Origin: a virus
Reading direction: 5' to 3' (one strand)
Length of the DNA: 64,000 nucleotides
Virus record (IMG/VR): IMGVR_UViG_3300008266_000018
Span: 1-64,000 of that record
Position numbers and translations under genes: made by a program. Below are positions 2,770 to 26,700 of the stretch, in pieces. Positions within the stretch are counted from its first letter, which is position 1. The number at the start of each line of letters is the position of its first letter. Below the pieces are notes generated by a model, which did no database searches, had not been told where the DNA came from, and was given only the letters and a program-made list of their open reading frames with translations.

Positions 2770-3300
2770 ATGCCAACAATTAATCAGATGGCTTCTGAAG
2801 TTATAGATGAATTAGGAATTACTGGTTCACCTACATCAGCTGCCGTAATACTTTGGTTTCGCACTAATTATGGCAAATTAAATAATGCTATCAGTAGAAA
2901 TTATGTCGTTTCAGATGACGGAGGAAGTCCAACTGTAATTTATTATCTTAAAGAAACTTTTGAAGATGGAACTATAGAAGAAATTGGATATGATGAAGCC
3001 GCAATTTATAAAAAGTTTTATTATTTGCAATATTATGATTCTGCAATAAGAAGCAATATGGGCGCGGCATCTATGGACGCAGTAGTTGAAGTTAATAGTG
3101 ACGGTATGACGGTAAGAAAAGTTAGCAAAACAGAAGTTGGTCGCAATCTTGCCACTTTCAAAAAGATGGAAATGGAAGAATTAAATTTAATGATAAGTAG
3201 ATATCAAGTTGCTAAATCTAAACCTCGTCAAGTTGCTGGTGACGATACCGTTGTTGGTTATTACATTGGTAAGAATTATCCATTAGGAATAACTCCATAA
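2770..3300 (+). CDS. Putative head-tail adaptor/neck protein
   Basis: Position at the start of the neck/tail operon and helical character; no diagnostic motif. Confidence 0.45.
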   Translation: MPTINQMASEVIDELGITGSPTSAAVILWFRTNYGKLNNAISRNYVVSDDGGSPTVIYYLKETFEDGTIEEIGYDEAAIYKKFYYLQYYDSAIRSNMGAASMDAVVEVNSDGMTVRKVSKTEVGRNLATFKKMEMEELNLMISRYQVAKSKPRQVAGDDTVVGYYIGKNYPLGITP

Positions 3301-3303
3301 TTT

Positions 3304-3765
3304 ATGGCAAGTTTAATTACCAATGACGAAAGAGTTTCTTTTACATCAAGTATCAACGATCATTTTGATACTTTTAAAAGAAGTATAACTATTTTTATTG
3401 AGCCAAAGCAAAATTTTAATAATGCTTCTCCTCAAAAGTATCTTCCCGGTTATCAAGCTTCAAGTACAGCAAATCCTGCGTTAACGATTATAAGCGCCGC
3501 TCATGACGCAATTGTAACTTATGGAGATTTTAATAGAACTGTATCTCCCGGTATTGGTAAAAATACAGATTCAGGATTAGTAAAAATCAAAGTAAAACAA
3601 GCTACTTACGATTACATTAAGAATAATAAGATAATTAAAATTACTATTGATGGAGATAGTTTTAATATTGCTTCTGTAGGTCGCCGCGCTAATTTCTTAA
3701 ATAAAAATCTTGGATCTACTTTTGGAGAAGTATTTTATATATTTGAATTAGAATATACCAAATAA
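3304..3765 (+). CDS. Putative head-closure protein
   Basis: Synteny, size, and a beta-rich C-terminus (KITIDGDSFNI). Confidence 0.4.
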   Translation: MASLITNDERVSFTSSINDHFDTFKRSITIFIEPKQNFNNASPQKYLPGYQASSTANPALTIISAAHDAIVTYGDFNRTVSPGIGKNTDSGLVKIKVKQATYDYIKNNKIIKITIDGDSFNIASVGRRANFLNKNLGSTFGEVFYIFELEYTK

Positions 3766-3766
3766 T

Positions 3767-4351
3767 ATGGGATATACTAAATTAGATATTGGTAAAATTA
3801 GAGGAAAAGCTTTGTCTAGTAAAAAAGCTAAAGATAAAGCTTTAGAAAAAGCCGAAAAAAAAGTTGGTGAAGAAAAAAGTATTTTAATTCAGGAATTTAA
3901 CAATCATGAAGTTACTAAAGAAATTGCGGCAGGACCAAAAGCTTCAAACACAAGCGGAACTTTAGGAGGATATGGAAATTTATTTAGCTTTATTGGTTTT
4001 GAAGCAAATTCTGATCCAATAACTCCAGTTAAAGAAATTTTAAATGAAATACAAGTAAAGAATATAAGATTTAATGGAGAAAGATATGAAGCTTCAGTTA
4101 AATATCCATCTCAAAATGAAATTAAAAAAGCAACTCCTTTGCCATTTGAAAATGGAAGAAGTTGGGCCGCAGGAATTGAAGATGGAATTAGTGGATTCAC
4201 GCAGTATATATATACTAAATTTTTAGATGGTAGATCTAAAGAAGGTGTTCAATCTGACAGAGCTAAAGGAGTTGGATCTTTTAAAAAACAAGACTATTTA
4301 AATTCACTATTACAAGATTTTATTAAGAATATAAGAGGTAACAAAAAATGA
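3767..4351 (+). CDS. Putative neck/tail-completion protein
   Basis: Basic protein with a GNL..I motif and WAAGIEDG, in the expected position. Confidence 0.4.
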   Translation: MGYTKLDIGKIRGKALSSKKAKDKALEKAEKKVGEEKSILIQEFNNHEVTKEIAAGPKASNTSGTLGGYGNLFSFIGFEANSDPITPVKEILNEIQVKNIRFNGERYEASVKYPSQNEIKKATPLPFENGRSWAAGIEDGISGFTQYIYTKFLDGRSKEGVQSDRAKGVGSFKKQDYLNSLLQDFIKNIRGNKK

Positions 4352-5217
4352 TAACGCAATTTGAAAATAAATTAGTATCAAGTTTTATACTGTATATTGA
4401 CAATCAAATACTCAAAAAAGGTCAAGCTTATACAGTTCAATCTGTTAACTTTAATAAAGTAGACGACGCTTTTCAAGTTAATGGAGTTGATTATTATACT
4501 TTTAATAGTCCATTTGATCAATTGGTATCAGACGTTTCAATACCTTCAGGAGGATTTAGCGGAATATCAATTAATGGGCAGAGTTTAAATTTAGGAACTA
4601 GTGGGTTTTATGGAATAAATTATGATGGGGGCCAAATTTATTTTACTGGAACTCAGTATACTGGATCAACAGTCGCCGCGACTGGATGCATTAAAGATTT
4701 TAATATCTATTTAAATAATTATACCGAAGAAGAATTATTGTTCGAAACTAAATTTGAAATTCGCGCAAAGTCTACTGATCAAGTTATAAATTCGTCTTCA
4801 TCATTAGGCTCAAAATATATTTCTTATCCAGCTATTTTTATAAGAATGGAAAGCGCAGAAGGAGAAGATTTTGCATTTGGCGGATTAGATAAAATGATAT
4901 CTAATTTTAGATGTTTAGTATTAGCTGAAAATACTTTTGCATTAGATGCAGCTTGTTCAATATTAAAAGATCTTAGAAAAACAGAATTCGGCATTATAGA
5001 TCCAACAGTTTTACCGTATTCTAATTTTGGCGCGATAACTGGTTCTGGATATAATTATGACACTCAAGTAAATAATCAAACTGATAAATCTTTGATTTGG
5101 GATGTTTCTGTGTCAAAAATATCATTTTCAGACAGCAGAATAAAACTAACAAATCCTCAAGTTTGTTCGGCAATTGTTGATTTTGAAGTGTATTCATTTA
5201 GAAATCCTAGATCTTAG
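4348..5217 (+). CDS. Putative tail terminator protein
   Basis: YPAIFI motif; immediately upstream of the tail tube gene. Confidence 0.5.
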   Translation: MITQFENKLVSSFILYIDNQILKKGQAYTVQSVNFNKVDDAFQVNGVDYYTFNSPFDQLVSDVSIPSGGFSGISINGQSLNLGTSGFYGINYDGGQIYFTGTQYTGSTVAATGCIKDFNIYLNNYTEEELLFETKFEIRAKSTDQVINSSSSLGSKYISYPAIFIRMESAEGEDFAFGGLDKMISNFRCLVLAENTFALDAACSILKDLRKTEFGIIDPTVLPYSNFGAITGSGYNYDTQVNNQTDKSLIWDVSVSKISFSDSRIKLTNPQVCSAIVDFEVYSFRNPRS

Positions 5218-5277
5218 GCTTTTAAATTTCACAAAGCAATTTTTTAAATGTAATTAATAAAAAAGGAATAATAACAT

Positions 5278-6168
5278 ATGGCTGCAATTAATAGAACAAT
5301 TTATACTCAAAGTGAAGTCAGAATTCTTTCTGGATCTGACGCTGGACCTTGGGCAGTAGTTTCTGGCGTACAAAACGCTTCAGTATCTTACAATAGCCCA
5401 AATCAAACCGTTAATGCCTTTGGAACAAAAGGAATTATTGATAACGTCCAATTAGAGCCAGAAACCGCAACAACTACATTTAGTTATATTTTACCATCTG
5501 GCACAGGAATTGGTCTTCATATTTCTCCATCAAAAATGAACGAATTGATGCAAAATTCTTTGTTAGACGTTCCAGTCCCAATGCATGTTACGGTAGCAGG
5601 AATTGGAAGAGTTATTAGCGGTTACTTATCTTCGCTTTCGGTTAATGCTTCTGTAGGAGATTTAGCTACTTGTGAAATGACTTTCGAAGGTGTTCCTTCT
5701 GGAGGAATAGCTGGAAATGATTCTGATGGAGAACGTCCAAATGCAATCTCATCTGTAGCTGCTGTTTCTTATCCCGTTTTAACTCCTGATAAAGTTAGCG
5801 GAATTGGCCCAGCAGTAGCTGAAGATGGAACTCCTGCTAGTAATCCTATTGGTGGATTTGGAGCATCTGCTCAAACTACTTCTTTCTCTTGGGAAATTCC
5901 TGTTGAAAGAGTTATGAGTTTAGGAACTTCAGTTTCTGATTCTACTACTTTCACAAATCCTCCTGGCACAGCCTCAATGACTGCCGAAGGCATGGATCTG
6001 CCTCTTGGAATTACAGGATTGGTTGTCGGTGGATTCACATTTGGACTTGGCGCTCAAGGAAGAGTATCTTCTAGAGAACATAATCTAGCTGTCGGAGATG
6101 TCGGGGCGACTTTCAGCGTTACAGTCGATTCTACCGCTGATTCTTGCACATGTGTTGCTACTGCTTAA
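5278..6168 (+). CDS. Major tail tube protein
   Basis: VQNASVSYN...VNAFG and LSSLSVNASVGDLATCEMTFEG beta-rich tube pattern; AAGGA RBS and its own terminator; lies upstream of the TMP. Confidence 0.7.
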   Translation: MAAINRTIYTQSEVRILSGSDAGPWAVVSGVQNASVSYNSPNQTVNAFGTKGIIDNVQLEPETATTTFSYILPSGTGIGLHISPSKMNELMQNSLLDVPVPMHVTVAGIGRVISGYLSSLSVNASVGDLATCEMTFEGVPSGGIAGNDSDGERPNAISSVAAVSYPVLTPDKVSGIGPAVAEDGTPASNPIGGFGASAQTTSFSWEIPVERVMSLGTSVSDSTTFTNPPGTASMTAEGMDLPLGITGLVVGGFTFGLGAQGRVSSREHNLAVGDVGATFSVTVDSTADSCTCVATA

Positions 6169-6189
6169 TAGTTAAATAAAATCCTTTTT

Positions 6190-6218
6190 ACCCCAAAGAG
6201 TAATCTTTGGGGTTTTTT
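6190..6218 (+). terminator. Rho-independent terminator
   Basis: accccaaaga-gtaa-tctttggggt hairpin followed by a T run. Confidence 0.9.
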
Positions 6219-6245
6219 CTTTTTTAATTATAATAATATAAGGCG

Positions 6246-6566
6246 ATGGATAAGAAAATAGTCGATACTATTTCTACAGATCAGTTTAAAGCTTTTCTAT
6301 TAGAACAAATTAAGCGTATTGTAAAAAAGGGCTATAAAACCCATTTGCGATCATTAGATGATTTACAGCAAAAACAATTAAAAATTGTATATGAAAATAA
6401 AGATAAAGTCGCGCCCGAAATTATTAAATCTTTAATACTACTAGACGAAGCTGCTTTTTCTAATAATCGCAAAGAGATATTAGATATTGGAAATAATATA
6501 ACAAGAGAGATAGAAAATTTATTTGAGAATCTAGTTATCAATATTAATAATAAAGAAGATTTATGA
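6246..6566 (+). CDS. Hypothetical protein
   Basis: ORF overlapping the next gene (ATGA). Confidence 0.7.
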   Translation: MDKKIVDTISTDQFKAFLLEQIKRIVKKGYKTHLRSLDDLQQKQLKIVYENKDKVAPEIIKSLILLDEAAFSNNRKEILDIGNNITREIENLFENLVININNKEDL

Positions 6567-7324
6567 TACCAGAAAAGTGGATTTACTCTTTTACTCTAGA
6601 TAAAGAAGTTAGCGTAGACAAAACCGAAGTCAGCAAAGATGAAACTGGCGCGGAAATTAGAATTACTAAATCAGTAAAAGAAAAGAAGCCTTTTGTATTT
6701 AAGATCAAGAAGCCAAGTCGAAAGCTTATTGAAGATGCTGATATATATTACGCCGCAAAAGTTGGTGAATATTTGAAAGCTGGATTATTGAGTAAGAATC
6801 TTATTGCTAAACGTCTTGAAAATGATGGCGGCGATCTAGGTGAAGAAACAAAAAAAGAATTTACTGAAGTTGCTAATAATTATTATAAAGCTCGGCTAGA
6901 AGTTGAAACTCTAGAATCAGAAGTTAAAGAAAAGAATCTTGATGCTGATAAAGAAAAGCTGCAAAAAGCTAAAGAAGATTTTGAAGATATTAGATTTAAG
7001 CTTACTGATCTTGAATATCGCAGAAATGCTATTTATGAACAAAGCGCCGAATCTAAAGCTCTTAACAAGCAAATTTTCTGGTATATTTTAAATACTACTT
7101 ATTGGAATAAGGGCGATGAAAAAGCTGATTTTACTTCTTATTTCGAAGGAAAGACTTTTGATGAAAAGTGCGATAGTTACGATTTAAAAGAAGATCAAGA
7201 ATCAGGAACTGAATTTTTTAATGAGCTTACTTCCAAGTTAGCTTTTTCTATTAGTTATTGGTTTAACTCTTCAAATAAAGCTACTCAAGAAGATATTGAC
7301 AAAGTATTGAGTGAGAATATCTAG
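6563..7324 (+). CDS. Putative tail assembly chaperone
   Basis: Charged coiled-coil protein located between the tail tube and TMP genes. Confidence 0.45.
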   Translation: MIPEKWIYSFTLDKEVSVDKTEVSKDETGAEIRITKSVKEKKPFVFKIKKPSRKLIEDADIYYAAKVGEYLKAGLLSKNLIAKRLENDGGDLGEETKKEFTEVANNYYKARLEVETLESEVKEKNLDADKEKLQKAKEDFEDIRFKLTDLEYRRNAIYEQSAESKALNKQIFWYILNTTYWNKGDEKADFTSYFEGKTFDEKCDSYDLKEDQESGTEFFNELTSKLAFSISYWFNSSNKATQEDIDKVLSENI

Positions 7325-8190
7325 TGAATGAAGCAGTTCTAGATCTTCAGAATATAGATTCTCAAGAAAAAGCTTTTTTGCTTTTTCGACACGTTATTCT
7401 CGGCGCGTCTTTTGATTATCATAATAATTTCTATGTAAAGCATAATTCTTTACTAGAAGCTACTTATATATCTGAATTTAATAAAACTTTAGAGTTTGAA
7501 TGCCAAGCTAAAGGATTATTGCCAGAAAAAGATAAGTTAAAAGTTCTATTCGAAAATACTTCTTGGTCAGAGCAGCAAGAAGGAGAATATCAAGAAAAAT
7601 TAAAAAGAATTCAAGATCTTGAAATTTCAAAGAAAAAACTAGTTATTCCTTTTCAAATTAAATCCGCTAAAGAGATTTTAAATAAAGAAATCGCCGCGCT
7701 ATCTCCATTGTTTATGGAGCGAGAAGATGCGATTGGTTTAACAGTAGAAAGTCATTGTAATAATAAAAATTATGAATATTATTTGCGGAACTTCTTTTTT
7801 AAAGATGAAAAACTAACTCGTCCACTTTTCTCTGAAGAAGAATTTGAAGATTTAGATGTCGTATTAATGAGGGAATATCATTCTTATTATAATGATTTTC
7901 AAAATGTATTTTCAGATAGAAATTTAAAAAAGATAGCTTGCGCTCCAATTGTTTATAATTCTTTCTTTTTATCTACATCTGCTAAAGATTTTTATGGTAA
8001 ACCTATTTGTGAACTTACCGTAAATCAAATAAGTTTGTATAGTAATTATATTTACTTTAAGAACGTGGGTTCATCTCCTGAATTTAAATCAGTTCCTCAA
8101 GAATATTATTCTGATTTAGGCAAAGTCGTAGATTATTACGATCAACAATGCAGTATTTTAAACAGTAAAAATAACTCTAAAAAGAGATAA
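7324..8190 (+). CDS. Putative tail assembly chaperone (GTG start)
   Basis: Immediately precedes the TMP; FYGKPICELT..Q motif. Confidence 0.45.
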   Translation: MNEAVLDLQNIDSQEKAFLLFRHVILGASFDYHNNFYVKHNSLLEATYISEFNKTLEFECQAKGLLPEKDKLKVLFENTSWSEQQEGEYQEKLKRIQDLEISKKKLVIPFQIKSAKEILNKEIAALSPLFMEREDAIGLTVESHCNNKNYEYYLRNFFFKDEKLTRPLFSEEEFEDLDVVLMREYHSYYNDFQNVFSDRNLKKIACAPIVYNSFFLSTSAKDFYGKPICELTVNQISLYSNYIYFKNVGSSPEFKSVPQEYYSDLGKVVDYYDQQCSILNSKNNSKKR

Positions 8191-8224: not shown

Positions 8225-11200
8225 ATGGCAGATACAATTATTACGGTTGGAGGAGAGACGAGTCAATTGGAGAGAGATATCCAAAAAACTCTTTCTAAAG
8301 ACTTTAAGCTAACGGGGCTTGATACAAAGTCGTTCTCTCAGCCTCTTGGAAAAATAAAAGGGCAACTAGGAGAATTCGAAAAATCTCTAGAAGCTTCTAA
8401 TGCTCGCGTTGTTGCATTCGGCGCGTCTGCTGGTTCTATTTATTTATTAACTGATGCTTTTAAAAGCATGGTTAAATCTACAATTGATGTAGAAAAAACT
8501 CTTGCAGATATAAATACAGTAATTAATGCAAGCGAAAGCGATATAAAATCTTTTGGAAATACTATTTTTGATGTAGCTAATAAAACATCTCAATCTTTTG
8601 AAACTGCCGCAGAAGCTGCATTGGAATTTTCAAGACAAGGTTTAGGTCTTGAGCAAACTGCAAAACGCACCGCTGATGCATTAACATTAGCTAGATTATC
8701 TGGTCTTTCAGCCGCCGCTTCAGTAGAAGCTTTGACTGCCGCAGTAAATTCATTTAGCGATGCAGGTTTAAGCACAACTCAAGTTGTAAATAAATTGGCC
8801 GCAGTTGATGCTAAATATGCTGTTAGCTCCGCAGATCTAGCAGAAGCAATTAAGCGTGTTGGTAGCTCTGCTAGTGAAGCTGGAGTTAATATTGATCAAT
8901 TAGTAGCTTTAGTTACTTCTGCCCAGCAAACAACTGCTAGAGGCGGCGCAGTAATTGGTAACTCTTTCAAAACCATTTTTACAAGACTTCAAAGACCTAA
9001 AGTTCTTGAAGATTTGCAAGAAATAGGAATACAAACTACGAATGCTGCTGGTGAAACGTTGCCATTAATTCAAATATTAACTCAATTAGCTAGAACGTTT
9101 GATACGTTGGGTTCTGCTCAGAAAAGCCAAGTAGGAGAGCTTGTTGGCGGTGTTTATCAAATAAACATACTTAAAGCTGTATTGGGAGATTTAAGCAAAG
9201 GATATTCTACTTTTTCAGGAGCTTTAAAAGCTTCTTCTGGAGCTACAAATGAAGCGGAACAAAGAATAGGTAAATTGGGCGAAACTCTAGACAGTCAAAT
9301 TAATAGAGTTACAAATAATTTAAAACGAGCAGGATCTATTGTTGGAGAATTAACTATCGCCCCAGCTTTAGAAAAAGTTTTATCAAATGTAAATAGCGTT
9401 TTAGAAACTTTCGCTTTAGGTAAAGAGCCTGAAAGTCTTGGAGAAAAAGCTGCGACAGGATTTTTAAAAGGATTAGGTGGTTTTATTTCTGGTCCCGGCT
9501 TAATGCTTGCCGCTGTTGGTGCGTTTCAAATTTTTAAAAGATTGGCTGTATTCGTTCAAGACGCAGGAAAAACGGTTTTAGGTTTAGGTCAAGCTGCTCA
9601 ACAACAAGCTCAAATTCAAGCTCAGATACTTCAATTATTACAAAAAAATCCCCAAGTATATTCTCAGATTGAATCTGGAGCAATTTCGGTTCAATCTGCC
9701 GCTCAAGGTTATTTAAATATTGTTAATGCTACAAACGCAGCATTAGAAAGACAGAAAGCTATTGCTGCTCAAATGACTAGAGCAGTAGTGGGTGGAGGTG
9801 CGCCTATTATTCCAACTTCTGGAAGAGGAGGCAAACGTGGTCGCGCAGCAGGATATATGCCAAGCATTTCCGATCAAAAGAGAATGGAGGAAAATGACGC
9901 TCGTAATCTTGGCGCACCATCTGGAGTTCGCGCCCATTTCGGAAAAGGAACAATCGGCGGCAAAAAATTCTTGATGAATAATCATGAAATTGAAATTCCT
10001 AATTATGGAGCAAATGGAGATTCTGCTGTTATTCCTAAATATGCAGTTGGAAATGCTGTCGAGAATCCTATTAGGGATTTATCTCAAACTAAAAAAGGTC
10101 TAAAATATCTTTATGATCTTAACAATCCTGTTGATACTTATATAGATCCTGTAGCAGGAGCGATAGGAAGAATTCCTTTACCTAAAACTGCAAAACAGTA
10201 TGATGATGCGGCGCTAAGAAAAATTAATGAATCTCTTGCTATCGATAAAAAAGGTAATCCATTAAAAGGCAAAACTCCTACGCCTGTAGCAGATTTAAAA
10301 TATAGAGGCGTTAAACTTTCTGGTTATTTATCTCCTAAATTTGATCCATCTACGTTATCAAGCACAAATGTAGAGACAAGAAGAGGTAATATTAGCAATA
10401 TAAAAGGAGCTTTAGCAGAAATAGATACTTTTAAACATTTAAATAAATTAAGACTTGATCCTAAAAAATTAGATTCTATTTACGGAATAGATTTTAGCGC
10501 AAAAAATAATGATTTATATGAGACAAAAGCTACTAAAGATTATGTCGCAGATGATGTAATATTAGCTAAGGCTTTGACATATATTGGAGAAAAAGACAAA
10601 AAAGCTGGAAAACCTCATATAGGTAATGGTAAGGATAGAATACAACTTCCTCCATTAACGGTGTTCCAATCAAAAGGTTTAGCGTCTGGATATATTCCTA
10701 GATTTGCCGCTGGAGATGGCAGTATGTCTCTAAAAGACTACATGATGATGAAATATGGAGAAGTTAAAGATACTTCTTCATTAGGCGGCGCGGCTTTAAA
10801 TGCTGCTTATGGTAAAGGCGTTTCTTTAGATGAGCTTAGAGCCACTTCTCCTAAATGGGCTAATTGGACTCCCGGTGGAGCAACTTCTGCCATGCTCCAA
10901 GGTAGAAAAGAAGCTAAAAAACAAACTCAAATAAATCGCGCTAATAAATATGGTTATAGAAAAATTATTCTTCCTTGGAGTAAATCTGTAGCTGATTTCG
11001 GCGGCGATCCTAATGAATTTGGTGATGCTTATGAAAATCTTGTTGCTCAAAAATTTGGCGCAAAAAGAGGCGATAGGTTTAAACGCGCAAACGATTATCC
11101 AGGAATTGCAGGAAGAACTCCTCAATCTAAATATAATTATACCGATGTTGATTTTATTGTCCCTAAAAATCCAAATGATTTATCAGCAGGAGGATCTTTA

Positions 11201-13930
11201 ATTGAAGCAAGAGGTGGAGATAAAAAGAATTATAACGCAAGTGATATATCTAAGAAGTTTGATAATTTCTTTAAGAATAATCCTTCTTATGACGCTGCAA
11301 AATGGAAGAAAATATTAGTATCTCGTAATGCTTCTGGATATATTCCAAGATTTGCTAAAGGAAAAGGCAAAAGAGCTAGAAGACCTTTTAATGATAGGGT
11401 AAATCCAGATGATTATGAACAGCTTTTGGCGGAATTTGAATTAACTAGGCCAACTGTAACAGAAGACATGTTAGAAGTTGCTCCTACTATTACACGCCCT
11501 GTAAGTGGTAAAAAATCATATTCTGCCCCTATTGGGGGTAGATCAATGCCTTCTAGTTTAACTCCTAAATCTACAGCCTTTAAAACAAGCGCGTCTTCTT
11601 TCTCTCAAAAATTTTATCAGCCAGCGACTCCAGTTTCTGAAAATTTAGCATCTGTTGACACAAAAAGAAGATCTGCATTTTTTGCTCCTCAAGAAACGGA
11701 GATAGAAAAATTAAATGCTACTCAAAAAGCTTTGGACAGAAGAGAGAGAAAATTAGCAAAGCGTAAAGGCGCTTTTACCGCACCAGCTTCTGTTTCGTCT
11801 ACAAGAGCTGCTATGCCTTCTAGAGGTGGAGGAAGATCAGGAGGTGGAAGCGGGACAGGAGGCGGCGGAAAAGGTTCCACTAAAGGTGGAGGAGCATTGG
11901 GTGGAGGAGTATCTTCTAAAGGAGGAGGAATGTTTGGCGGAGAAAAAGGTGGAATGGGTGGCTCTATGCTGAAAAGTCTTATGGCGCATCAGCTTCTTAG
12001 TCAAGCTGGATCATTCGGAATGATTGGAGAAGAAGGAATGAACGTAGGAAGTCAAGCTTTAGCAGCTTACGATCAATTTCAAATGATAAAAGGTTTGCAA
12101 CAAGAATATTTTCCTAAAGGAGGAAAAGGAGGAAAAATTACAGGAGCGGCAGGAAAATTGTTAAACACTAAGATTGGTGGAAAAATGGGCGGCGTTGGAA
12201 AAGGTTTGATGGGAAGACTAGGAAAAAGCTCTATTGGAAAAGGAGTTGCAAGTTTGGCTTCGAAAGGTTCTGGATTGTTGGCAAGGTCTGGAATTGGATC
12301 TCTTGCAGGTGGTCTCGCTAGATTTGCGGGTCCAATAGGTTTAGCTTATACGGCTGGACAAGCTGGATCGGCAGCTATTGATTATTTTGGAGGAGGAGAG
12401 ATGTTAGGTGGAGCAAGTTTTGGTCAAAGACAAATTAATAAAGAACAAGAGCAAGCAGCTAAAGAAATGGAAAGATTTAAAACTAGAGAAGGACAATCTC
12501 TTTCCGCTTACTCTTCTGCGGCAAGTAGCAAATATGGATTTGGAAATGAAGATATTGCAGGATTAAGAGGTGGGGCAGTTTCTGGAGCTATAGAAGGATT
12601 AGGAGGAATAAAAAATGCAAAATCAATAGTAGATAAATTTGGCGGAGTAGGAGTAAAAGGACAAGGCTCTCAAGGAAAATTAGATAATATTACCGAAGAA
12701 ATTTTTAATAAATTAAAAGCAGCAGGTAAAGAAACTGGAGGTTTAAATTTTGAAACAGCAAATTTTAAAGAATTGCAAAAAAGAGATAAAGAAGCTCAAG
12801 CTGGTTTACCTGGAGTAAAAGCTTTAAATGAAGAAGAAAAGAAGTTATTAGAAACTTATAAAACTGCTAAAGATGTCGCCGCTGGATTAGTAAAAGAAGT
12901 CGCTGGCTTTGAAAGGGCTACTGCTGCTCAAAAAGCTTTCTCTTCTATTGCTAAACAAATGGGAGAAATGCAAGCGAAGGGAACATCGATGCTTAGTGTT
13001 TATAAGCAAATAACCGCTTCAGAAGAGCAAAGAAAAAAAACATTAGCTGATAATCTTGGCGGAGGAGTAGATGCATTTTTAGATCCTACTAAATCTGCTG
13101 ATAGCATGTCTAAAATACAAAGATCTTTAAGAACACTTAACGATCCAAGATTAGCTGGAAATGCTGTTGAAAGAGGAAGAGCGGCAAATGCTTATATGGC
13201 TGGAACAACAGAAATGGGTATTGATATTGATCCTCGGATAAGAAGCGGACTAAGTAGAGTTCAAGATCAAGGATTGCAGACATTCCAAGCGCAAAATTTT
13301 AATGCCTTAAATAGAATGGCTGGTGGTTTTAGAAATCAATACGGCCTTTCTCAAGGTATAAATCAAGGAATTTATAACGCTGGAGAAGCTGCTAAGAAAA
13401 GAGGAATGACTATTCAAGAAGCTCAATTTACAAATGATGCTGGATCTGTACAAGGAGGCTATCTTTCTTCATTGCAAGGAAAAGCTCTTGGTTTATCTCC
13501 TGAAACTGTAAGAGGAATGGAAGAAGCTTCAAGAAAATTGCAAGAATCTATAGAAAAATTTGCTAAAGTCGCAGAAGCTTATGCTGGAGGAAAAATAAGT
13601 GAAGCTGACTTTAATAGAATTCAATCAAGCGTAGAAGGTGCAGTTAAATCGGGCGCTAATTCTACAAGTCCAAATGCTCAAGCAGAAATGGCATCTACTA
13701 TAGAAAGAGCTTTTGCGTCATTAGATGCGGCGACTAAAGCTATAATTGATACTAAATCAACTCCATCTTCTGTTACTGTTGGTGGAGAAATAGGTTTAAC
13801 TGAAGAAGCTAGAAGGTATTTAACTATTGGAGAAAGCTTTGCTAAGATGCAAGGAGATCAAGCTAAAAAATCTAATACTCCTCCTAGCACTATACCACAA
13901 AGAGTGCCAATTAATCAACAAAAACCGTAA
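8225..13930 (+). CDS. Tape measure protein (TP901-type N-domain) with inserted modules
   Basis: 1901 aa; TMP core (VNKLAAVDAKYAVSSADLAEAIKRVGSSA...IGNSFKTIFTRL), a hydrophobic segment, and an A/G/K-rich C-terminal half. Confidence 0.9.
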   Translation: MADTIITVGGETSQLERDIQKTLSKDFKLTGLDTKSFSQPLGKIKGQLGEFEKSLEASNARVVAFGASAGSIYLLTDAFKSMVKSTIDVEKTLADINTVINASESDIKSFGNTIFDVANKTSQSFETAAEAALEFSRQGLGLEQTAKRTADALTLARLSGLSAAASVEALTAAVNSFSDAGLSTTQVVNKLAAVDAKYAVSSADLAEAIKRVGSSASEAGVNIDQLVALVTSAQQTTARGGAVIGNSFKTIFTRLQRPKVLEDLQEIGIQTTNAAGETLPLIQILTQLARTFDTLGSAQKSQVGELVGGVYQINILKAVLGDLSKGYSTFSGALKASSGATNEAEQRIGKLGETLDSQINRVTNNLKRAGSIVGELTIAPALEKVLSNVNSVLETFALGKEPESLGEKAATGFLKGLGGFISGPGLMLAAVGAFQIFKRLAVFVQDAGKTVLGLGQAAQQQAQIQAQILQLLQKNPQVYSQIESGAISVQSAAQGYLNIVNATNAALERQKAIAAQMTRAVVGGGAPIIPTSGRGGKRGRAAGYMPSISDQKRMEENDARNLGAPSGVRAHFGKGTIGGKKFLMNNHEIEIPNYGANGDSAVIPKYAVGNAVENPIRDLSQTKKGLKYLYDLNNPVDTYIDPVAGAIGRIPLPKTAKQYDDAALRKINESLAIDKKGNPLKGKTPTPVADLKYRGVKLSGYLSPKFDPSTLSSTNVETRRGNISNIKGALAEIDTFKHLNKLRLDPKKLDSIYGIDFSAKNNDLYETKATKDYVADDVILAKALTYIGEKDKKAGKPHIGNGKDRIQLPPLTVFQSKGLASGYIPRFAAGDGSMSLKDYMMMKYGEVKDTSSLGGAALNAAYGKGVSLDELRATSPKWANWTPGGATSAMLQGRKEAKKQTQINRANKYGYRKIILPWSKSVADFGGDPNEFGDAYENLVAQKFGAKRGDRFKRANDYPGIAGRTPQSKYNYTDVDFIVPKNPNDLSAGGSLIEARGGDKKNYNASDISKKFDNFFKNNPSYDAAKWKKILVSRNASGYIPRFAKGKGKRARRPFNDRVNPDDYEQLLAEFELTRPTVTEDMLEVAPTITRPVSGKKSYSAPIGGRSMPSSLTPKSTAFKTSASSFSQKFYQPATPVSENLASVDTKRRSAFFAPQETEIEKLNATQKALDRRERKLAKRKGAFTAPASVSSTRAAMPSRGGGRSGGGSGTGGGGKGSTKGGGALGGGVSSKGGGMFGGEKGGMGGSMLKSLMAHQLLSQAGSFGMIGEEGMNVGSQALAAYDQFQMIKGLQQEYFPKGGKGGKITGAAGKLLNTKIGGKMGGVGKGLMGRLGKSSIGKGVASLASKGSGLLARSGIGSLAGGLARFAGPIGLAYTAGQAGSAAIDYFGGGEMLGGASFGQRQINKEQEQAAKEMERFKTREGQSLSAYSSAASSKYGFGNEDIAGLRGGAVSGAIEGLGGIKNAKSIVDKFGGVGVKGQGSQGKLDNITEEIFNKLKAAGKETGGLNFETANFKELQKRDKEAQAGLPGVKALNEEEKKLLETYKTAKDVAAGLVKEVAGFERATAAQKAFSSIAKQMGEMQAKGTSMLSVYKQITASEEQRKKTLADNLGGGVDAFLDPTKSADSMSKIQRSLRTLNDPRLAGNAVERGRAANAYMAGTTEMGIDIDPRIRSGLSRVQDQGLQTFQAQNFNALNRMAGGFRNQYGLSQGINQGIYNAGEAAKKRGMTIQEAQFTNDAGSVQGGYLSSLQGKALGLSPETVRGMEEASRKLQESIEKFAKVAEAYAGGKISEADFNRIQSSVEGAVKSGANSTSPNAQAEMASTIERAFASLDAATKAIIDTKSTPSSVTVGGEIGLTEEARRYLTIGESFAKMQGDQAKKSNTPPSTIPQRVPINQQKP
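10682..11355 (+). repeat. 26-bp direct repeat gc(g/t)tctggatatattcc(t/a)agatttgc at 10682-10707 and 11330-11355, encoding ASGYIPRFA
   Basis: 24/26 identity read directly from the sequence. Confidence 0.9.
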
Positions 13931-13944
13931 TAAGTGTTTGAATT

Positions 13945-15720
13945 ATGCCTAATTTTAATATAACTACAATATTAAGTTATTCTTTAAAAAAAGAATATAT
14001 AGGAACTATGAACTACAGAAATGTAGTTACTATAGTAGTAGAAACTATTCATAAAACAGATTCTACAAACGCTTATGATTCTACATTAACAATTCCTAAT
14101 GATTATAGTTATGCTGAAGTATATCAAAAATCATTAACACCAATATCTTTAAATGGAAATGGATTTGGCCTTGGAAGAGTAATTTCTATATCAGAACCAA
14201 GAAGCGTTAATTTTGATGAAAATGGATTAGTGTTTTGGAAAAGAAATATAACTATTGAATTATATGAAAATGGAGATAATACAAATACTCCAAATGATGC
14301 GGCGAATACATTTTACGCAAGATTAAAAGATAATTTATTTGATAGTAGAATAAGGGAAATATCTGAAGATTTTAATTTCACGGATGATGAAGAAGGGAAT
14401 CTTGGATATACTCATACAGTTTCAGTGTCTTGCGACGATTTCGTAGCTTCTGGAAGCCCTAACAATAGTACTCAAACAGGCGTTTATCTTGCTAAACAAA
14501 AAGCTCAATCTTTAATAGAAAGTGAAGTAAATTTTGGTTATCTAGGTAGTTTAGCTAATTTGTATGGTAAAGCTGGTAAAAAAACTTTCTCTACAGATAT
14601 TGACGTAATAAATGGAACTGTTTCTATAACTAAAACTTTTACTTCTTTTCTTGTTAAATATCCAGCTACATATTCTTTTGCAGTTCAAGATGATGGATCT
14701 ATTAATATCTCAGAATCAATAACTTTTAAAAATAAAGATTTAGCGACAAAAGTTGATTCAATTGGCAGTATTGTTTCTATATTAGATAATGTTAAAGCTA
14801 ACGCTTTTGCAAGATGTCAAGGATATTTTAATGTATATAAACTTTTTATTACTAATGATCAAGCTGTTGATAGTTTATCCGCTAGTGCTATATCATTACT
14901 TTCGATAAATAGAACTTTTAATGAAGAGTCTCAAGAGTATAGTCAACAAATGGTTTTTTCTAATGCCAGAAATTTAAGAAATAATTTTACTTTAGAAATT
15001 GATCAAAATATAAGTTCTGATGGCAAAGGAATAACAACTATAACTGAAAACGCTAATTTCGTATCAAAATTAAAAAAACAAAATGGAGTTTCTCAGCCTT
15101 CTATAAATTCTACAATAAGAGGATATATAGATTCCGAACAAGCAAATAGTTTAAGCAGAGCAGTTAATTTATATAATAAATATTATAAATTAGCTATTTC
15201 AGCGCCGTTAAAATTAATTAATTCAACCAGAACATTAAGTTCTAATGGAAAAGCTTTTGGATATTCTGTAATATTTAATAATGATCCAAGTTTCGTAAGA
15301 GATGGAGTTATAAATACAATTAATAGCAAAATAAATTCTACTATACCAAAGAAGATCGTAAAAACATATATTGTGCCGGGATATCTTAATAGTAAAAATA
15401 TTTTTTCGCAAGAAAATGAACAATCTTCTCCCGGTTCTTTAAGTGTTACTCAATCAGTTGTATTAAAAAGAAATGATAGTAATAAAACTCCAGATTTAGT
15501 AAGTAAACCAACTGCCGCTATTAATTCAGTATACAATAGATGTCTGCTTACAATATTCAATAGATTAACTGGTTTTGGTTTAGGAGATCCAAAAAATTTT
15601 ATTATAAACTCTGCGTCGTTTTCTTATAATTCTTCTAGAAGCTTGGAGATGACTGTATCTATTACTTATTTTATAGCTGCAAATAAATTCGGCCCCAAAA
15701 CAACTTTATATACTAATTAA
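13945..15720 (+). CDS. Putative tail/baseplate protein
   Basis: Follows the TMP; beta-rich with repeated DDG.I.ISE-like units. Confidence 0.5.
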   Translation: MPNFNITTILSYSLKKEYIGTMNYRNVVTIVVETIHKTDSTNAYDSTLTIPNDYSYAEVYQKSLTPISLNGNGFGLGRVISISEPRSVNFDENGLVFWKRNITIELYENGDNTNTPNDAANTFYARLKDNLFDSRIREISEDFNFTDDEEGNLGYTHTVSVSCDDFVASGSPNNSTQTGVYLAKQKAQSLIESEVNFGYLGSLANLYGKAGKKTFSTDIDVINGTVSITKTFTSFLVKYPATYSFAVQDDGSINISESITFKNKDLATKVDSIGSIVSILDNVKANAFARCQGYFNVYKLFITNDQAVDSLSASAISLLSINRTFNEESQEYSQQMVFSNARNLRNNFTLEIDQNISSDGKGITTITENANFVSKLKKQNGVSQPSINSTIRGYIDSEQANSLSRAVNLYNKYYKLAISAPLKLINSTRTLSSNGKAFGYSVIFNNDPSFVRDGVINTINSKINSTIPKKIVKTYIVPGYLNSKNIFSQENEQSSPGSLSVTQSVVLKRNDSNKTPDLVSKPTAAINSVYNRCLLTIFNRLTGFGLGDPKNFIINSASFSYNSSRSLEMTVSITYFIAANKFGPKTTLYTN

Positions 15721-15721
15721 T

Positions 15722-17641
15722 ATGCCTTTTATCGCGACATATAGTGGATTAAATTCTAATTCATCACCAAAAAGTCCTTGGGCTGATATAATTCCATATG
15801 TTTCTGTAGATAATAATAGAACTTGGACATCTTCAAAGATATCTAAAGAAGAATCTGTTTCTTTAAATGGTCAATTAACTTTAAGTGGATTTAACGCTTT
15901 AGGAAGCAGCCCAACGACTTATGGGTATGCATCTTCTCCATCTCCAATCGAAGGATTAACTTTTGCTTCTGGATATATAAAAATAATTAAAGATGCATTT
16001 TCTAGAAGTTATGGAGAATTAATAATAGCAAATAGTGAAAATGAAAAAATAGTTTCTGGTATTTATTATGTTGATTCAATTCAATTTGATTCTCAAAATT
16101 ATATAGGAGTAATTGATTATTCAGTTAGTTTATCAAGAATAAATGAATTAACTTATAGTGGGTTAAATCCTTCTGAAACTATTTCTGCATCAGAAGATGG
16201 TAATGGAATTATTAACATAACTCATAATATCTCCGCAGAAGGTGTTGGTTTTGCTTTTAATGGTAACAATCCAGTTGCTTTTGATTCAGTAAAAACATTT
16301 GTACAAAACTCAACTGGAGCGGCAAGAATTAAAAGTTTATCTTTTGACTCTGGATATTTGCCTACTGGCAGCGGCGCTTCTGGTGTTTATTTTTCTGGCG
16401 GTAATTCAAGTAATTTAATACTAGTATCTCAGACTGAATCTATAAATAGAATTGAAAATAAATACGCTATTGAAGAGATTTTTAAAATAGATAATATTTA
16501 CAATGGAGAATATGGAACAAAAAGATTTTCTGTTGATTTTAATTCTGGCATTACAGATGAATATAGCGTAGTTAATGTAACTTGCAATATACAAGGAGCA
16601 AAAGATAAAGCATTTAGCGGAGTTACAGGAATGCTGGATAATATTACTGGTCAAATGTATAATGCTGCGACTGGTATTTTTGGAAGTACTACAGAATTAT
16701 GTCCAATTCCTATCGCTTTTAATATAGATACAACTAGAATAATAACTGGGCATTTAGATGGAACAAATATTCTTGGAGTTGATGGATCTTCATCTATCAC
16801 TGTTAATTGTTCTTTTGATAACAGTTTAAATGGAACATTTTTCGATTACGATATATCATTTTCTTCTGACGAACAATCTAATACTACGTCTTTAGATATA
16901 AATGGAGTTATAAAAGGAAGAGGTTTGCATACTGCTCAAAAGTTTGTTGATGCTTCTGGACATTTATTTACTACGTTATTAAGCAATCAACCTGACGTTA
17001 AAACCATGCTTTTTAATAAAGCAGTTTCTGGATTTAATGCATCTGCTCCAACAGCAAATACTAATTTATGTTTTGGAGTTATTGGCGAAAGAGGCGGTCA
17101 ATCTTTTGGATTTGTTAAAGATAAAGGCCAGTCTAGTATCGATATGAATACTAATAAAGGAGAAATTACTTTATCAGCTTCTTTCTCTGATGAGGCCGCA
17201 GTGTCTGGATATGATAATTTTTCTTGGTCTACATCTGCTGAAGTTGGGATGCCATTGCTTGTAGCAAAGCCTTCTTACAAAGTAAATGGATTTAATCTAG
17301 TTCAAGATATAGGTGTAAATCAAAAAACTTCTTATACTTTTGATGGGTCTTTTGAATTTGCTACTGGATCTCAAGGAGGAATACAGATTCTTTCTGAATC
17401 ATCTCAACCTCATACTGGAATATTAAGAAAGATGGTCGAAGCAGAAACAATTCCTTTATCAGAAGTATCTAATAATATCGACGGAGATGTCGGCGTTGTT
17501 TTAGAAAATTATAACAAGAGTTTTGATTTCGTAAGTGGATCAAATTCTAATAGTTCTGATTATTTGGGATCTGGATTTAATGTTAATTTGTCAACTCCAA
17601 AACAACCATTGATAATATATTCGACATATACAGTAAAATAA
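15722..17641 (+). CDS. Putative tail/baseplate protein (possibly a paralog of 13945-15720)
   Basis: Similar unit (EDGNGIINITHNISAEG versus DEEGNLGYTHTVSVSC); SG/TG-rich. Confidence 0.5.
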   Translation: MPFIATYSGLNSNSSPKSPWADIIPYVSVDNNRTWTSSKISKEESVSLNGQLTLSGFNALGSSPTTYGYASSPSPIEGLTFASGYIKIIKDAFSRSYGELIIANSENEKIVSGIYYVDSIQFDSQNYIGVIDYSVSLSRINELTYSGLNPSETISASEDGNGIINITHNISAEGVGFAFNGNNPVAFDSVKTFVQNSTGAARIKSLSFDSGYLPTGSGASGVYFSGGNSSNLILVSQTESINRIENKYAIEEIFKIDNIYNGEYGTKRFSVDFNSGITDEYSVVNVTCNIQGAKDKAFSGVTGMLDNITGQMYNAATGIFGSTTELCPIPIAFNIDTTRIITGHLDGTNILGVDGSSSITVNCSFDNSLNGTFFDYDISFSSDEQSNTTSLDINGVIKGRGLHTAQKFVDASGHLFTTLLSNQPDVKTMLFNKAVSGFNASAPTANTNLCFGVIGERGGQSFGFVKDKGQSSIDMNTNKGEITLSASFSDEAAVSGYDNFSWSTSAEVGMPLLVAKPSYKVNGFNLVQDIGVNQKTSYTFDGSFEFATGSQGGIQILSESSQPHTGILRKMVEAETIPLSEVSNNIDGDVGVVLENYNKSFDFVSGSNSNSSDYLGSGFNVNLSTPKQPLIIYSTYTVK

Positions 17642-23791: not shown

Positions 23792-26700
23792 ATGACTCCA
23801 GTAACTCAAGCAATAATCCCTCAACTAGATGAAACAATAAAATCTAGTCATTTATATTCTTTTGCGGAAGCTTTTAATACGAGAATTTTAAATGGCGCTG
23901 GAGACTCTCATTGGCGCATTCCTTATTATATATATAGCGCGTATTTTAGAAAGCCTCGTCTTGACGACGATATGTTATACGCTCCAGAAAGCGAATTTTT
24001 TGATTTTTATCAATTCGTTAATCCTGGAAATGGAGATACTTGGCCTGTTGCAAGCCCTCAAACTCCAGAAGGAGCAAATCTTCAAACTAACTTTTTGAAT
24101 AGGTTCATTTTTGGAATGAACTATAATAAGAAAGATCCTTCTTCAGGAGCTTGGCTTTACGAAAGAGAAGATGTAAGAGTCCAAAAAGCTCAAAATCTTT
24201 TAAGATCAAGTGAATCTTATTTATTTAGAGGTAGGACTTTTAATGGATTCACTTCTATTGGAACAGATACTGGAACTGGTTTAGAATATACAGCTTTTGG
24301 ATTAGCTAATGAAATTCATAATTATGGCTATATAAGTGGAAATCCAACAAATCCAGCAGGAAATAGTTATGGAGGATTTTATGGATTAAATCCATTAATT
24401 ACAAAGAAAGATGGATGTGGAGAAGATGCTGAAAAATTTTATCCTTCATCTGTTAGTTCATTAGTTCCAATAGACGGATATCTAGGAACTGAAAAAACTT
24501 TTACTATTTGCAATGAAGGAACATCGGCGGCTTTTGATGCAGCTTTTACAGAATATTCAATAATAAGTAATGGAAATTTAAATAATTTTTTCGCTTTTAA
24601 AATTCAAGGAAATAATTTAATTTCTGCTGAATTGTATCCTAAAAATAGATGGCATTTAACTCAAAATCAATCAACAGTTTTTCTAGGAAGAGAGCAGAAA
24701 AATCACATTTATAGACTTTTATATAATTTTATTACATACGCAAAAGGTTTCGATTTTGATTGGTTTTTTAATAATCAATATTGTTTTGCTCCTGAGATAG
24801 GTTCTTTTTCGAGAATAACAGCCACATATTCTGTTAATAATCCTCAATTATATAATAGAAAAGATTTGATGGACAGTGAAATACAGTTTGATCAAGCTAG
24901 ATTAGTATTAAGAAATAATAAACTGTCTAATTCAAGAAAATTGAATGGAACTTTCACTCAAGCAGGATATGTAGTAACAATAACTTTTACTACGCAACAT
25001 GGATACAATGTTGATGATTGGGTAGATATTTATTTATATTATGCTGGTAGCTCTACTCCATTTCCAAATGATAATTATAATCGTTTTAAAGTAATTTCAA
25101 AAACGGCTCTTTCTTTTAATATTGATATATCTGGAATGATTGGAAGCGTTTCTGGAACTTTTAATGGAAATGCTGAAATAAGAACATTTTTATATATTAC
25201 AGAAGGTATAGATTATAAAACAATACCAAATACTTCTTATATAGAAATTAAAACTCCATCTGATTCAGTTCAGTATAATGGAGTAGATAATTATGTAAAG
25301 CCTTATTTATATAATAATGATTATCTTAGTACTTATGATTTAAAAGAATATCTTTACGAGCTTCGTTCGGTTACTGATGGAGCAGTTTTGAGTAATACAA
25401 TTGATCCAACGACTTCTGATTATGGACAATTAGTTACTGTCCCAAATGGATTTACTTTACAAAGTTTGGAAGTTTTATCTACTAATGTCAAAAAATGTAC
25501 GATTTTTGTGCATTATACAAAAATAACAGTCGTTGATAAATTAAAATTTGAACAGTCTGATGTGAAAGTATTTAATTTTAGCCCTAGTGTAGATAAAGTT
25601 GCATTAGCAATTTCTTCTAATTTATATTTATCTACAGACGCTAATTATACTTGCTTGGTTAGATTTGAAGTTAAAGATATTTCTTATTTTGATGATAATG
25701 TAAATGGTGGGCTTATTTTATATCCAATATTTTTATATACTTATCAACCTAAAATAGAAGATGCTTATGCTTTATTAAGAGCATGTGCTTATTATGGATT
25801 AGAAGACGCTAATTTTGATAATCCTAATCATCCTTTTAAAATTGTAGATGAAAACAATCCCGGCGCGAAATATTTCTCTGATCAATTAAAAAAGTTTGGG
25901 ACTTTAGGTGGCGGAGATATTAGAAATTATTCTATTAATGGCGCTCATGATTCAAATAATGTTGAATTAAATACTAATGCTGTTTTTGAAGCATCAAGAA
26001 GGTTAAGTCTTTTTACTAGAATTTTAGGCCCTAATAACATACAAGCTATAGTTAATGAAAATACTTTAAGATTTGATAGATTTGCTAGGCAAAGTGGGCG
26101 TTTAACTAAATTTAAAGACCAAAAATATTTAGCTACACAAAGTACATTTACTATAGCTTCTAAAAATTTTGAAACTGTTCAACAAAATTTTGCTCAAGGC
26201 CATGATATGGCTTGGTGGGATGCTAATCTTAAATATTTTGCAGATTTATTTTATTCTTTTTATAGTGAAAGCATGTCGCCTTCACCTACAAATGATGCAG
26301 AAATAACATATCCTTACTATACTGGCTTTGATCATTATGTATTTGATGCAATTACTGAATCTAAACTTTATACAAAATTAGATTATGATATAGTTACAAC
26401 TTTAAATTCAAAAGGTATACCTACCCAGATAAACTTAAATACAGTAGAATTTCAACCAGCAGAATTTTTAGTTAATTATGATTCATTTATAGTATCAAGA
26501 CCAAAAAGTTCAATACAGTCGTCTGATAATAATTTTTATAAACAAATTAGCGACACTGGTTATATTTATTATCAATTTGAAGATAAGTATGGCGAAAAAT
26601 ATTTTAGATTTGATAATAGCGGAAATAAAGTTTATCAAGTTAGAAGATTCGATAATTTCACACCTCTTCCTAGTGTTCCTAATGTAATTGGAGTAGGAAA

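Follow-up and report, generated by a model that had tools for sequence, protein, structure and literature searches.

Motif-bounded nuclease-like modules in a siphophage tape measure protein as candidate tail-borne cargo

Introduction

Why would the tape measure protein (TMP) of a phage tail carry nuclease-like modules in its middle, and what might they do there? The question is raised by a stretch of viral DNA of 64,000 nucleotides (positions 1 to 64,000 of IMG/VR record IMGVR_UViG_3300008266_000018; hereafter the window), in which one open reading frame (ORF) at 8225-13930 on the + strand encodes a protein of 1901 amino acids. The ORF matches Pfam family PF10145 at residues 118-304 (E 1.9e-25, 90.3 bits against a cut-off of 33.2) and 14 PHROG TMP families; judged by these sequence matches, it is a TP901-type siphophage tape measure protein. 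A sequence-only reading of the window had already called it a TMP, which the matches bear out, and had proposed that it is a polyprotein delivering modular effectors, with a repeated motif as protease cut site or linker.

We propose that the conserved N-terminal 540 residues of this protein are followed by a "cassette bay". The bay would consist of a mini-module of ~60 residues and then of independently folding modules split by a junction peptide, (K/Y)A(S/A)G(F/Y)(I/V)P(N/R)FA. In this phage it appears to hold two unrelated basic modules of 205-210 residues, each predicted to end in a restriction endonuclease (REase)-like core. The architecture and its evolution are well supported, and the function is what we infer. 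On balance, we lean towards reading these motif-fenced, nuclease-like modules as cargo borne in the tail. To our knowledge, enzymes fused to TMPs are known only as isolated cases, namely cell-wall hydrolases and one RNA polymerase, and our literature search found no paper on the junction motif or on nuclease cassettes in TMPs.

Architecture of the cassette bay

All parts of the bay lie on the + strand within the TMP ORF. The first is a degenerate junction motif, AAGYMPS (9845-9865, residue 541), which the junction alignment identifies as the positional homologue of KAAGYIPNFA in relatives. It is followed by a conserved "start" mini-module ending in VIPKYAVG (9866-10051, residues 548-609), which was delimited by homologue matches and falls into cluster c2. 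Cassette 1 (block 1; 10052-10681, residues 610-819, 210 amino acids) and cassette 2 (block 2; 10715-11329, residues 831-1035, 205 amino acids) are each followed by a junction copy: copy A, ASGYIPRFAAG (10682-10714, residue 820), and copy B, ASGYIPRFAKG (11330-11362, residue 1036). From AlphaFold 2 (AF2) models and conservation, cassette 1 is divided into an N-terminal subdomain and an REase-like core (~residues 716-815), and cassette 2 into a helical N-terminal part and an REase-like core. The two 11-mers are identical at 10/11 positions, and six-frame translation shows the motif nowhere else in the window.

The sequence-only reading had counted four related motif copies in this region. All of its coordinates are exact, and AAGYMPS is homologous to the first canonical copy, but IPKYAVG is not a junction copy. 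The junction-region alignment shows it to be the end ("VIPxY") of the conserved ~60-residue mini-module; the canonical copy that follows this mini-module in relatives has been lost in this phage.

Relatives were sought at several levels. With residues 541-1046 as the query, a word-indexed search gave 59 metagenomic TMPs. HMMER, run against 1.84 billion representatives, gave 158 representative matches; every one is a long TMP or a fragment, and neither block has a free-standing homologue among them. At least 471 further relatives come from IMG/VR, and the 80 of these that were kept lie on contigs of about 12-210 kb. The phages of INPHARED gave no match by blastn or tblastn, and no relatives were obtained from IMG/VR with block 2 alone as the query.

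The start mini-module is both the best conserved and the most widespread element of the arrays: cluster c2 has 70 members, and most of the 158 representative matches cover only this module. Its predicted local distance difference test score (pLDDT) in AF2 is 30-45. Its layout is a helix (E..A..LGA), a hairpin (GTIGGKKF.MNN.E) and then two to three short "IPx(F/Y)" elements ~10 residues apart. A different mini-module, c0 (RE..AG.P...NP.GLGV.N.RDEP), ends the array in most relatives and is missing in this phage.

Exchange of cassettes between related phages

The window TMP was compared module by module with 58 relatives using BLAST. Identity across the close relatives (P0003-P0046) is 85-98% for the N-terminal backbone and 57-100% for block 2; in about 25 of them, unrelated sequence stands in place of block 1. 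P0017, for example, matches the window in the backbone (98%), block 2 (98%) and the C-terminus (97%) and gives no match to block 1. Block 1 is wholly absent in four relatives (P0039-41 and P0044), block 2 occupies other ordinal positions in P0043, P0045 and P0046, and the length of the TMP changes with its cassette content. That the number and identity of the blocks vary between the motifs while the flanks stay 90-98% identical, as the sequence-only reading implied, is borne out by the TMP alignment.

The same borders are visible in the DNA. Homology of 87-97% (blastn) with the loci L003, L004, L005, L008 and L009 stops at 10046-10052, restarts at 10685-10686 in L003, L004, L005 and L009, and stops again at 11350-11362 in L003, L004 and L005. 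The three breakpoints are the three cassette borders, within a few bases. The DNA encoding the motif is near-identical within the window clade, and it would therefore supply the crossover points for the swaps that left these breakpoints.

A maximum-likelihood tree of the backbone was built for 40 close relatives, leaving off P0002 (identical to the window), P0037 (N-terminally truncated) and P0042, P0043, P0045 and P0046 (without the mini-module). The cassette family in slot 1 requires 17 changes on this tree, compared with a mean of 16.2 for shuffled labels, and at least seven of the changes are forced by well-supported branches. Therefore, cassette content is uncoupled from the backbone. We consider the cassette architecture and its motif-to-motif exchange to be very probably as described here.

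The repertoire from which the bay is filled is wide: the 455 blocks bounded by motifs were sorted into at least 78 cassette families, including 43 singletons. The commonest large cassette of the family is c1 together with its hhalign relatives; c1 has one invariant Glu, two invariant Lys and an Asp conserved in at least 90% of members, in the order E...D...DxK. Hhalign relates the nuclease core of an alternative slot-1 cassette of ~157 residues, c4, to that of block 2 (95%, E 2e-8); c4 has the canonical signature YE...D...LLEvK. From these signatures and the hhalign results, c1 and c4 appear to be nuclease-like. By family membership, at least one cassette with a signature of the E..D..(D/E)xK type is present in 143 of 156 TMPs. 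Other enzyme types also occur. The same slot in P0042 contains a staphylococcal nuclease (SNase) domain (PF00565, 22.8 bits against a cut-off of 21, over the full profile length), and Pfam detects GNAT acetyltransferase and PcfJ-like domains in other arrays of the family. P0042, whose backbone is 82% identical to that of the window, is labelled at NCBI as a "Candidatus Nanopelagicales" metagenome-assembled genome; this unverified label is the only hint of a host.

Such exchange could also result from a selfish element, that is, from in-frame insertions of homing-type nucleases that cut junction DNA lacking a cassette and so spread among co-infecting phages. The TMP would do no more than tolerate the cassettes, and the junction peptide would keep it functional. 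TMP genes are known and frequent homes of homing endonuclease genes, the content of which can vary between unchanged flanks (10.1101/2023.03.23.533998). Presence/absence and replacement polymorphism between near-identical backbones would be explained in this way, as would breakpoints at a sequence of ~21-26 nucleotides conserved within the clade; moreover, most cassettes look nuclease-like, and one of the structural matches of block 1 is the PD-(D/E)xK homing enzyme I-Ssp6803I (VIA-align, see below). However, every cassette has an unbroken copy of the putative target sequence on either side, and the element would thus cut its own genome. The cassettes are always in frame in one ORF, none of the SNase, GNAT and PcfJ cassettes is a homing enzyme, and family-wide the motif DNA is not conserved beyond codon bias. 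Nor was an intron or intein detected. Rfam gave no match in 9300-11900 at E up to 1, and the cassette ends, which read ...FA/AGDGS and ...SRNASGYIPRFA, are without intein splice residues (an N-terminal Cys/Ser, and a C-terminal His-Asn plus Cys/Ser/Thr); both candidates were rejected. We regard the spread of a selfish element as a highly improbable explanation of the array.

The junction peptide

Counted over 201 related TMPs, the pattern G[YFW][IVLM]Px[FYW] has 608 occurrences, with 0-9 copies per protein. The consensus in these proteins is (K/Y)A(S/A)G(F/Y)(I/V)PNFA, and the spacing from motif to motif clusters at 60-80 and 180-300 residues. In 88 TMP ORFs from IMG/VR, 329 copies were found. 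With these counts, the repeat of the motif in the window cannot be put down to chance. Across more than 280 related TMPs, the family-wide form G(F/Y)(I/V)P(N/R)FA is present in 0-9 copies. The motif lies within one uninterrupted TMP ORF in 87 of 89 fetched loci, and no split-gene form of the array was found in the 89 loci or among the 158 HMMER matches. Several TMPs of 2800-3700 residues (P0198, P0196, P0130, L088 and others) have a second group of motifs near the C-terminus, for example at about residues 2900-3100, and some of these proteins may have a cassette bay at two places.

The family has Asn at the fifth position of the motif where the window clade has Arg. Among TMPs with at least two copies (n = 238), 203 contain only Asn at this position, 33 only Arg, and one is mixed. 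This uniformity within a protein fits a shared partner or homogenisation by recombination alike. Both window copies (10688-10708 and 11336-11356) have AGA (Arg) in place of the family's AAT (Asn), as is the case throughout the clade P0003-P0041. Because the replacement of AAT by AGA takes two base changes and is found in both copies, copying between junctions is likelier than two independent double substitutions.

Synonymous codons inside the 329 motif copies follow the background usage of the same genes. Selection therefore acts on the peptide and not on the DNA, and a pure DNA recombination handle was rejected as an account of the motif. AlphaFold pLDDT values are low at the motif, at both ends of both block models, which is consistent with a disordered, exposed and flexible joint in the predicted structures. 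We propose that the junction peptide would combine such a joint with a role at the protein level, in processing or docking. Disorder and peptide-level selection fit a processing site, a docking element or a linker equally well.

In the polyprotein proposed by the sequence-only reading, the junction would be a protease cut site, and nuclease effectors would be set free from the TMP by cleavage, either within the virion or once the TMP has been ejected. This proposal is partly supported. The motif is modelled as disordered and exposed, its peptide is kept independently of codon choice, and it is always located exactly between modules; a uniform Asn or Arg in each protein (203/33/1) is expected if all copies fit one partner. 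Polyvalent virion proteins have been proposed to be processed after delivery (PMC5512222). However, Pfam and PHROG searches found no protease domain in the TMP or in the neighbouring ORFs, and they did not reveal the zincin peptidase that serves polyvalent proteins as their hub. If every junction were cut, the ruler would fall into N- and C-terminal halves. The uniformity of Asn or Arg is equally explained by recombination between copies, and the motif resembles no cleavage site known to us. Self-cleavage by Asn cyclisation at PN/F is excluded in this phage, where both copies have Arg, and the replacement of Asn by Arg rules out Asn-mediated self-cleavage in its clade. Putative proteolytic cutting at the motif is thus doubtful in our view, and we judge it rather unlikely that the TMP is a polyprotein of this kind.

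Predicted fold and conserved residues of the two blocks

The sequence-only reading had assigned a restriction endonuclease-like fold to both blocks. The fold is borne out in the AF2 models built from family alignments, where the pLDDT is ~90 over residues 646-820 for block 1 and averages 78 for block 2, and where the residues that had been named take canonical positions. Both models end in an alpha-beta-beta-beta-alpha-beta unit; in the well-predicted block 1 model (pLDDT ~90), DSSP assigns it as H176-201, a two-residue bridge, E217-219, E223-228, H236-253 and E271-275. The block coordinates and the strings KGALAE, GIDF and LYETK of block 1 and FGDAYE, DVDF and LIEAR of block 2 were found correct. 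In block 1, E732 (10418) and D734 are located in helix 1, D756 (10490) starts strand 2, and E766 (10520) and K768 (10526) form the E-x-K of strand 3. E937 (11033), D976 (11150), E994 (11204) and R996 (11210) occupy the same places in block 2. The proposed order of helix-E, D and ExK, with Lys replaced by Arg in block 2, is therefore confirmed in position.

The two sets differ in conservation. E732, D734, D756, E766 and K768 are invariant in 16 homologues of block 1 with 37-96% identity, so that its E/D...D-x9-ExK set is complete and invariant. Among the homologues of block 2, E937 never varies, and D976, E994 and R996 are each kept in at least 90%; a distant relative, P0065, has Lys at the position of R996 and hence ExK. 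The activity of block 2 is uncertain because it has ExR rather than ExK. Cassette 1 is, by a modest preference, predicted to be an active nuclease. Both blocks are under purifying selection, with ratios of nonsynonymous to synonymous substitution rates of 0.25-0.36 (block 1) and 0.03-0.37 (block 2), compared with 0.04-0.12 for the backbone, and both are basic (net charge +11 and +12). Hhalign detected no link of block 1 to block 2 or to any other cassette family.

Structural neighbours were sought with VIA-align against 48,161 PDB chains, and 50 matches were listed per block. Among them, FAN1 VRR-NUC (Z 5.5 for block 1 and 5.9 for block 2) and Hjc (4.5 and 5.3) were the best matches of both blocks, with the Z values as a whole (3.3-5.9; 3.3-5.5 for block 1) lying below the tool's background of 7-8 for best hits. 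Most of the 50 matches listed for each block are presumably nucleases of the PD-(D/E)xK kind, judging from PDB titles and our knowledge of the families; FAN1 VRR-NUC, Hjc/Hje, PspGI, HindIII, Cas4, NucC, LlaBIII and the CdiA-CT toxin, the last among the matches of block 2, are taken to be of this kind. The top matches in Foldseek were of a like kind, namely HindIII, Hjc, tRNA-splicing endonucleases, VRR-NUC and HincII. The ESM Atlas gave nothing for block 1 and only a sub-threshold (0.82) lead to Tox-REase-7 for block 2. Taking the uniform kind of the matches, the topology and the residues together, we predict with good confidence from the models that both blocks have an REase-like, PD-(D/E)xK fold.

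Possible role as tail-borne cargo

Tail-borne cargo is the simplest reading of cassettes that look like enzymes, are conserved, swap fast and are obligately fused to the TMP. Fused to the virion protein that is first out of the tail, they would be carried in the tail and may work on nucleic acid once a new cell is infected, with host DNA, the DNA of a competitor or a defence system as possible targets. Delivery into the host as functional cargo seems to us evenly balanced between yes and no.

The low Z values given above weigh against this reading, and so do several other points. Foldseek found nothing below E 0.1 in PDB and BFVD (E 0.26 or worse for block 1), Pfam matched neither block alone at E up to 10, and nothing meaningful was found for either block in PDB by sequence or by profile. 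Block 2 has ExR in place of ExK, and its Glu is gone in two distant relatives (P0068 and P0070). No immunity-like gene was found among the scanned ORFs near the TMP. A folded domain of ~23 kDa would have to fit into the tail tube and travel through it, and the family is without a known virion, isolate or host. In addition, the near-universal presence of a nuclease-like cassette could mean a core structural or DNA-handling role.

In this last case, the nuclease-fold modules would be non-catalytic or self-directed parts of the tail and not host effectors; they might bind or hold the end of the phage DNA, plug the lumen or set the tail length. With 143 of 156 TMPs carrying it, the signature cassette has the look of a core feature, the cassettes are strongly basic, the canonical Lys is lost in cassette 2, and TMP length varies with cassette content. 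However, a catalytic set that is invariant at 37% identity in cassette 1 is hard to explain without catalysis. Turnover of the slot as fast as in shuffled labels, with unrelated enzyme types, is typical of conflict genes rather than of structural parts, and slot 1 is absent in some close relatives (P0039-41 and P0044). A structural or DNA-handling role is therefore improbable in our judgement.

If the modules are delivered, as the cargo reading holds, they would give siphophages a general and evolvable means of introducing first-strike enzymes into the cell, with a bearing on defence and counter-defence, phage competition and folded cargo in the tail tube. What turns over is a set of unrelated, mostly nuclease-like modules in a dedicated, motif-fenced TMP bay of a whole family (more than 470 IMG/VR relatives). 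Many Pfam-dark domains thereby gain a context and a testable function, and the junction peptide offers a clean point of access for experiments and for the search for further arrays. The Arg variant of the motif, the degenerate left border, the two adjacent REase-like cassettes and the very clean DNA breakpoints make the window stand out. A more tentative extension, which we think unlikely, is that the junction is a processing or release signal and the TMP a reloadable injector of a very large family of aquatic phages, the enzymes being shuffled from phage to phage at the junction, borne in the tail lumen and freed in the host ahead of the DNA. If true, such an injector would be the phage-tail counterpart of polymorphic toxin systems.

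Comparison with known systems

In gp96 of Thermus phage P23-45, a virion RNA polymerase is fused to a giant TMP; the proposal is that the enzyme works inside the host when the TMP, which precedes the DNA, is ejected (Chaban et al. 2024, PMC10770324). As in the present family, an enzyme domain is translationally fused to the TMP, and gp96 is thus a precedent for a TMP-fused enzyme that can act in the host. P23-45 has one fixed N-terminal polymerase, no junction peptide and no nuclease folds, whereas the modules described here are motif-fenced and interchangeable; the P23-45 system has been shown experimentally, whereas the present one is known from sequence and models.

Cell-wall hydrolase motifs are reportedly embedded in the TMPs of mycobacteriophage TM4 (an Rpf-like motif) and of T5 (the Pb2 peptidase). 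There, too, catalytic domains lie within the TMP and are carried in the tail. However, they are fixed and act on peptidoglycan, while the domains considered here have folds of nucleic-acid enzymes and are swapped at a dedicated motif.

The concept of polyvalent proteins is the nearest general framework. These are large virion-associated strings of disparate enzyme domains, including GNAT and nucleases, for which action immediately upon entry and processing into separate units have been proposed (Iyer et al. 2017, PMC5512222). The REase-like, SNase, GNAT and PcfJ cassettes of the present family resemble them. That paper contains no occurrence of tape measure proteins and describes no single repeated junction peptide (PMC5512222). 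Unlike polyvalent proteins, this TMP and 51 related TMPs and arrays lack the zincin hub and MuF/ArdC-N in Pfam searches.

The best structural matches of both blocks, VRR-NUC and Hjc, share with the predicted models the core topology and the placement of the acidic residues and Lys. The blocks differ in having an extra N-terminal subdomain each and, in block 2, ExR, and no sequence relationship to VRR-NUC or Hjc was detected.

In polymorphic toxins, a short conserved peptide (VENN in CdiA, DPxGL in Rhs) borders exchanged nuclease-type modules, and REase-fold toxins are common cargo. The short peptide at the border of exchange, the CdiA-CT structural match and the weak Tox-REase-7 lead from the Atlas recall these systems. 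However, their modules are C-terminal tips with adjacent immunity genes, whereas those described here are internal, multiple and part of a structural protein. Scanning the locus for an immunity gene showed no small co-oriented ORF after the cassettes, which are internal to one ORF.

Other features of the protein and its genomic context

The PF10145 PhageMin_Tail core (8576-9136 on the + strand) lies inside the conserved N-terminal backbone (residues 1-540). A single hydrophobic, transmembrane-like segment was found by a Kyte-Doolittle scan 5' of the cassette array (9461-9556, residues 413-444). The part of the TMP that follows copy B (11363-13927) is Gly-rich and basic, and in BLAST comparisons it is 28% to 97% identical to relatives. 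The structural genes of the window form a long block on the + strand that contains the TMP ORF, and the GC content of the window is 28-39%.

Upstream of the TMP are a tail-fibre-like ORF at 26-1564, which has PHROG matches to tail fibre or baseplate-wedge families with E values as low as 6e-26, and an ORF at 1577-2440 that resembles an immunoglobulin (Ig)-like Hoc or a major tail protein; a tail-fibre-like and an Ig-like ORF 5' of the TMP make an unusual order for a siphophage tail module. The ten ORFs that flank the TMP (2770-8190 and 13945-17641) gave no significant Pfam match, and the eight of them scanned against PHROGs gave none there. Two of these ORFs, of 253 and 288 residues at 6563-8190, stand in the position of tail assembly chaperones. 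The ORFs around the TMP show how poorly this phage lineage is annotated. A second giant ORF of 1982 residues (23792-29740) closes the structural block, just before the strand switch at ~29.8 kb.

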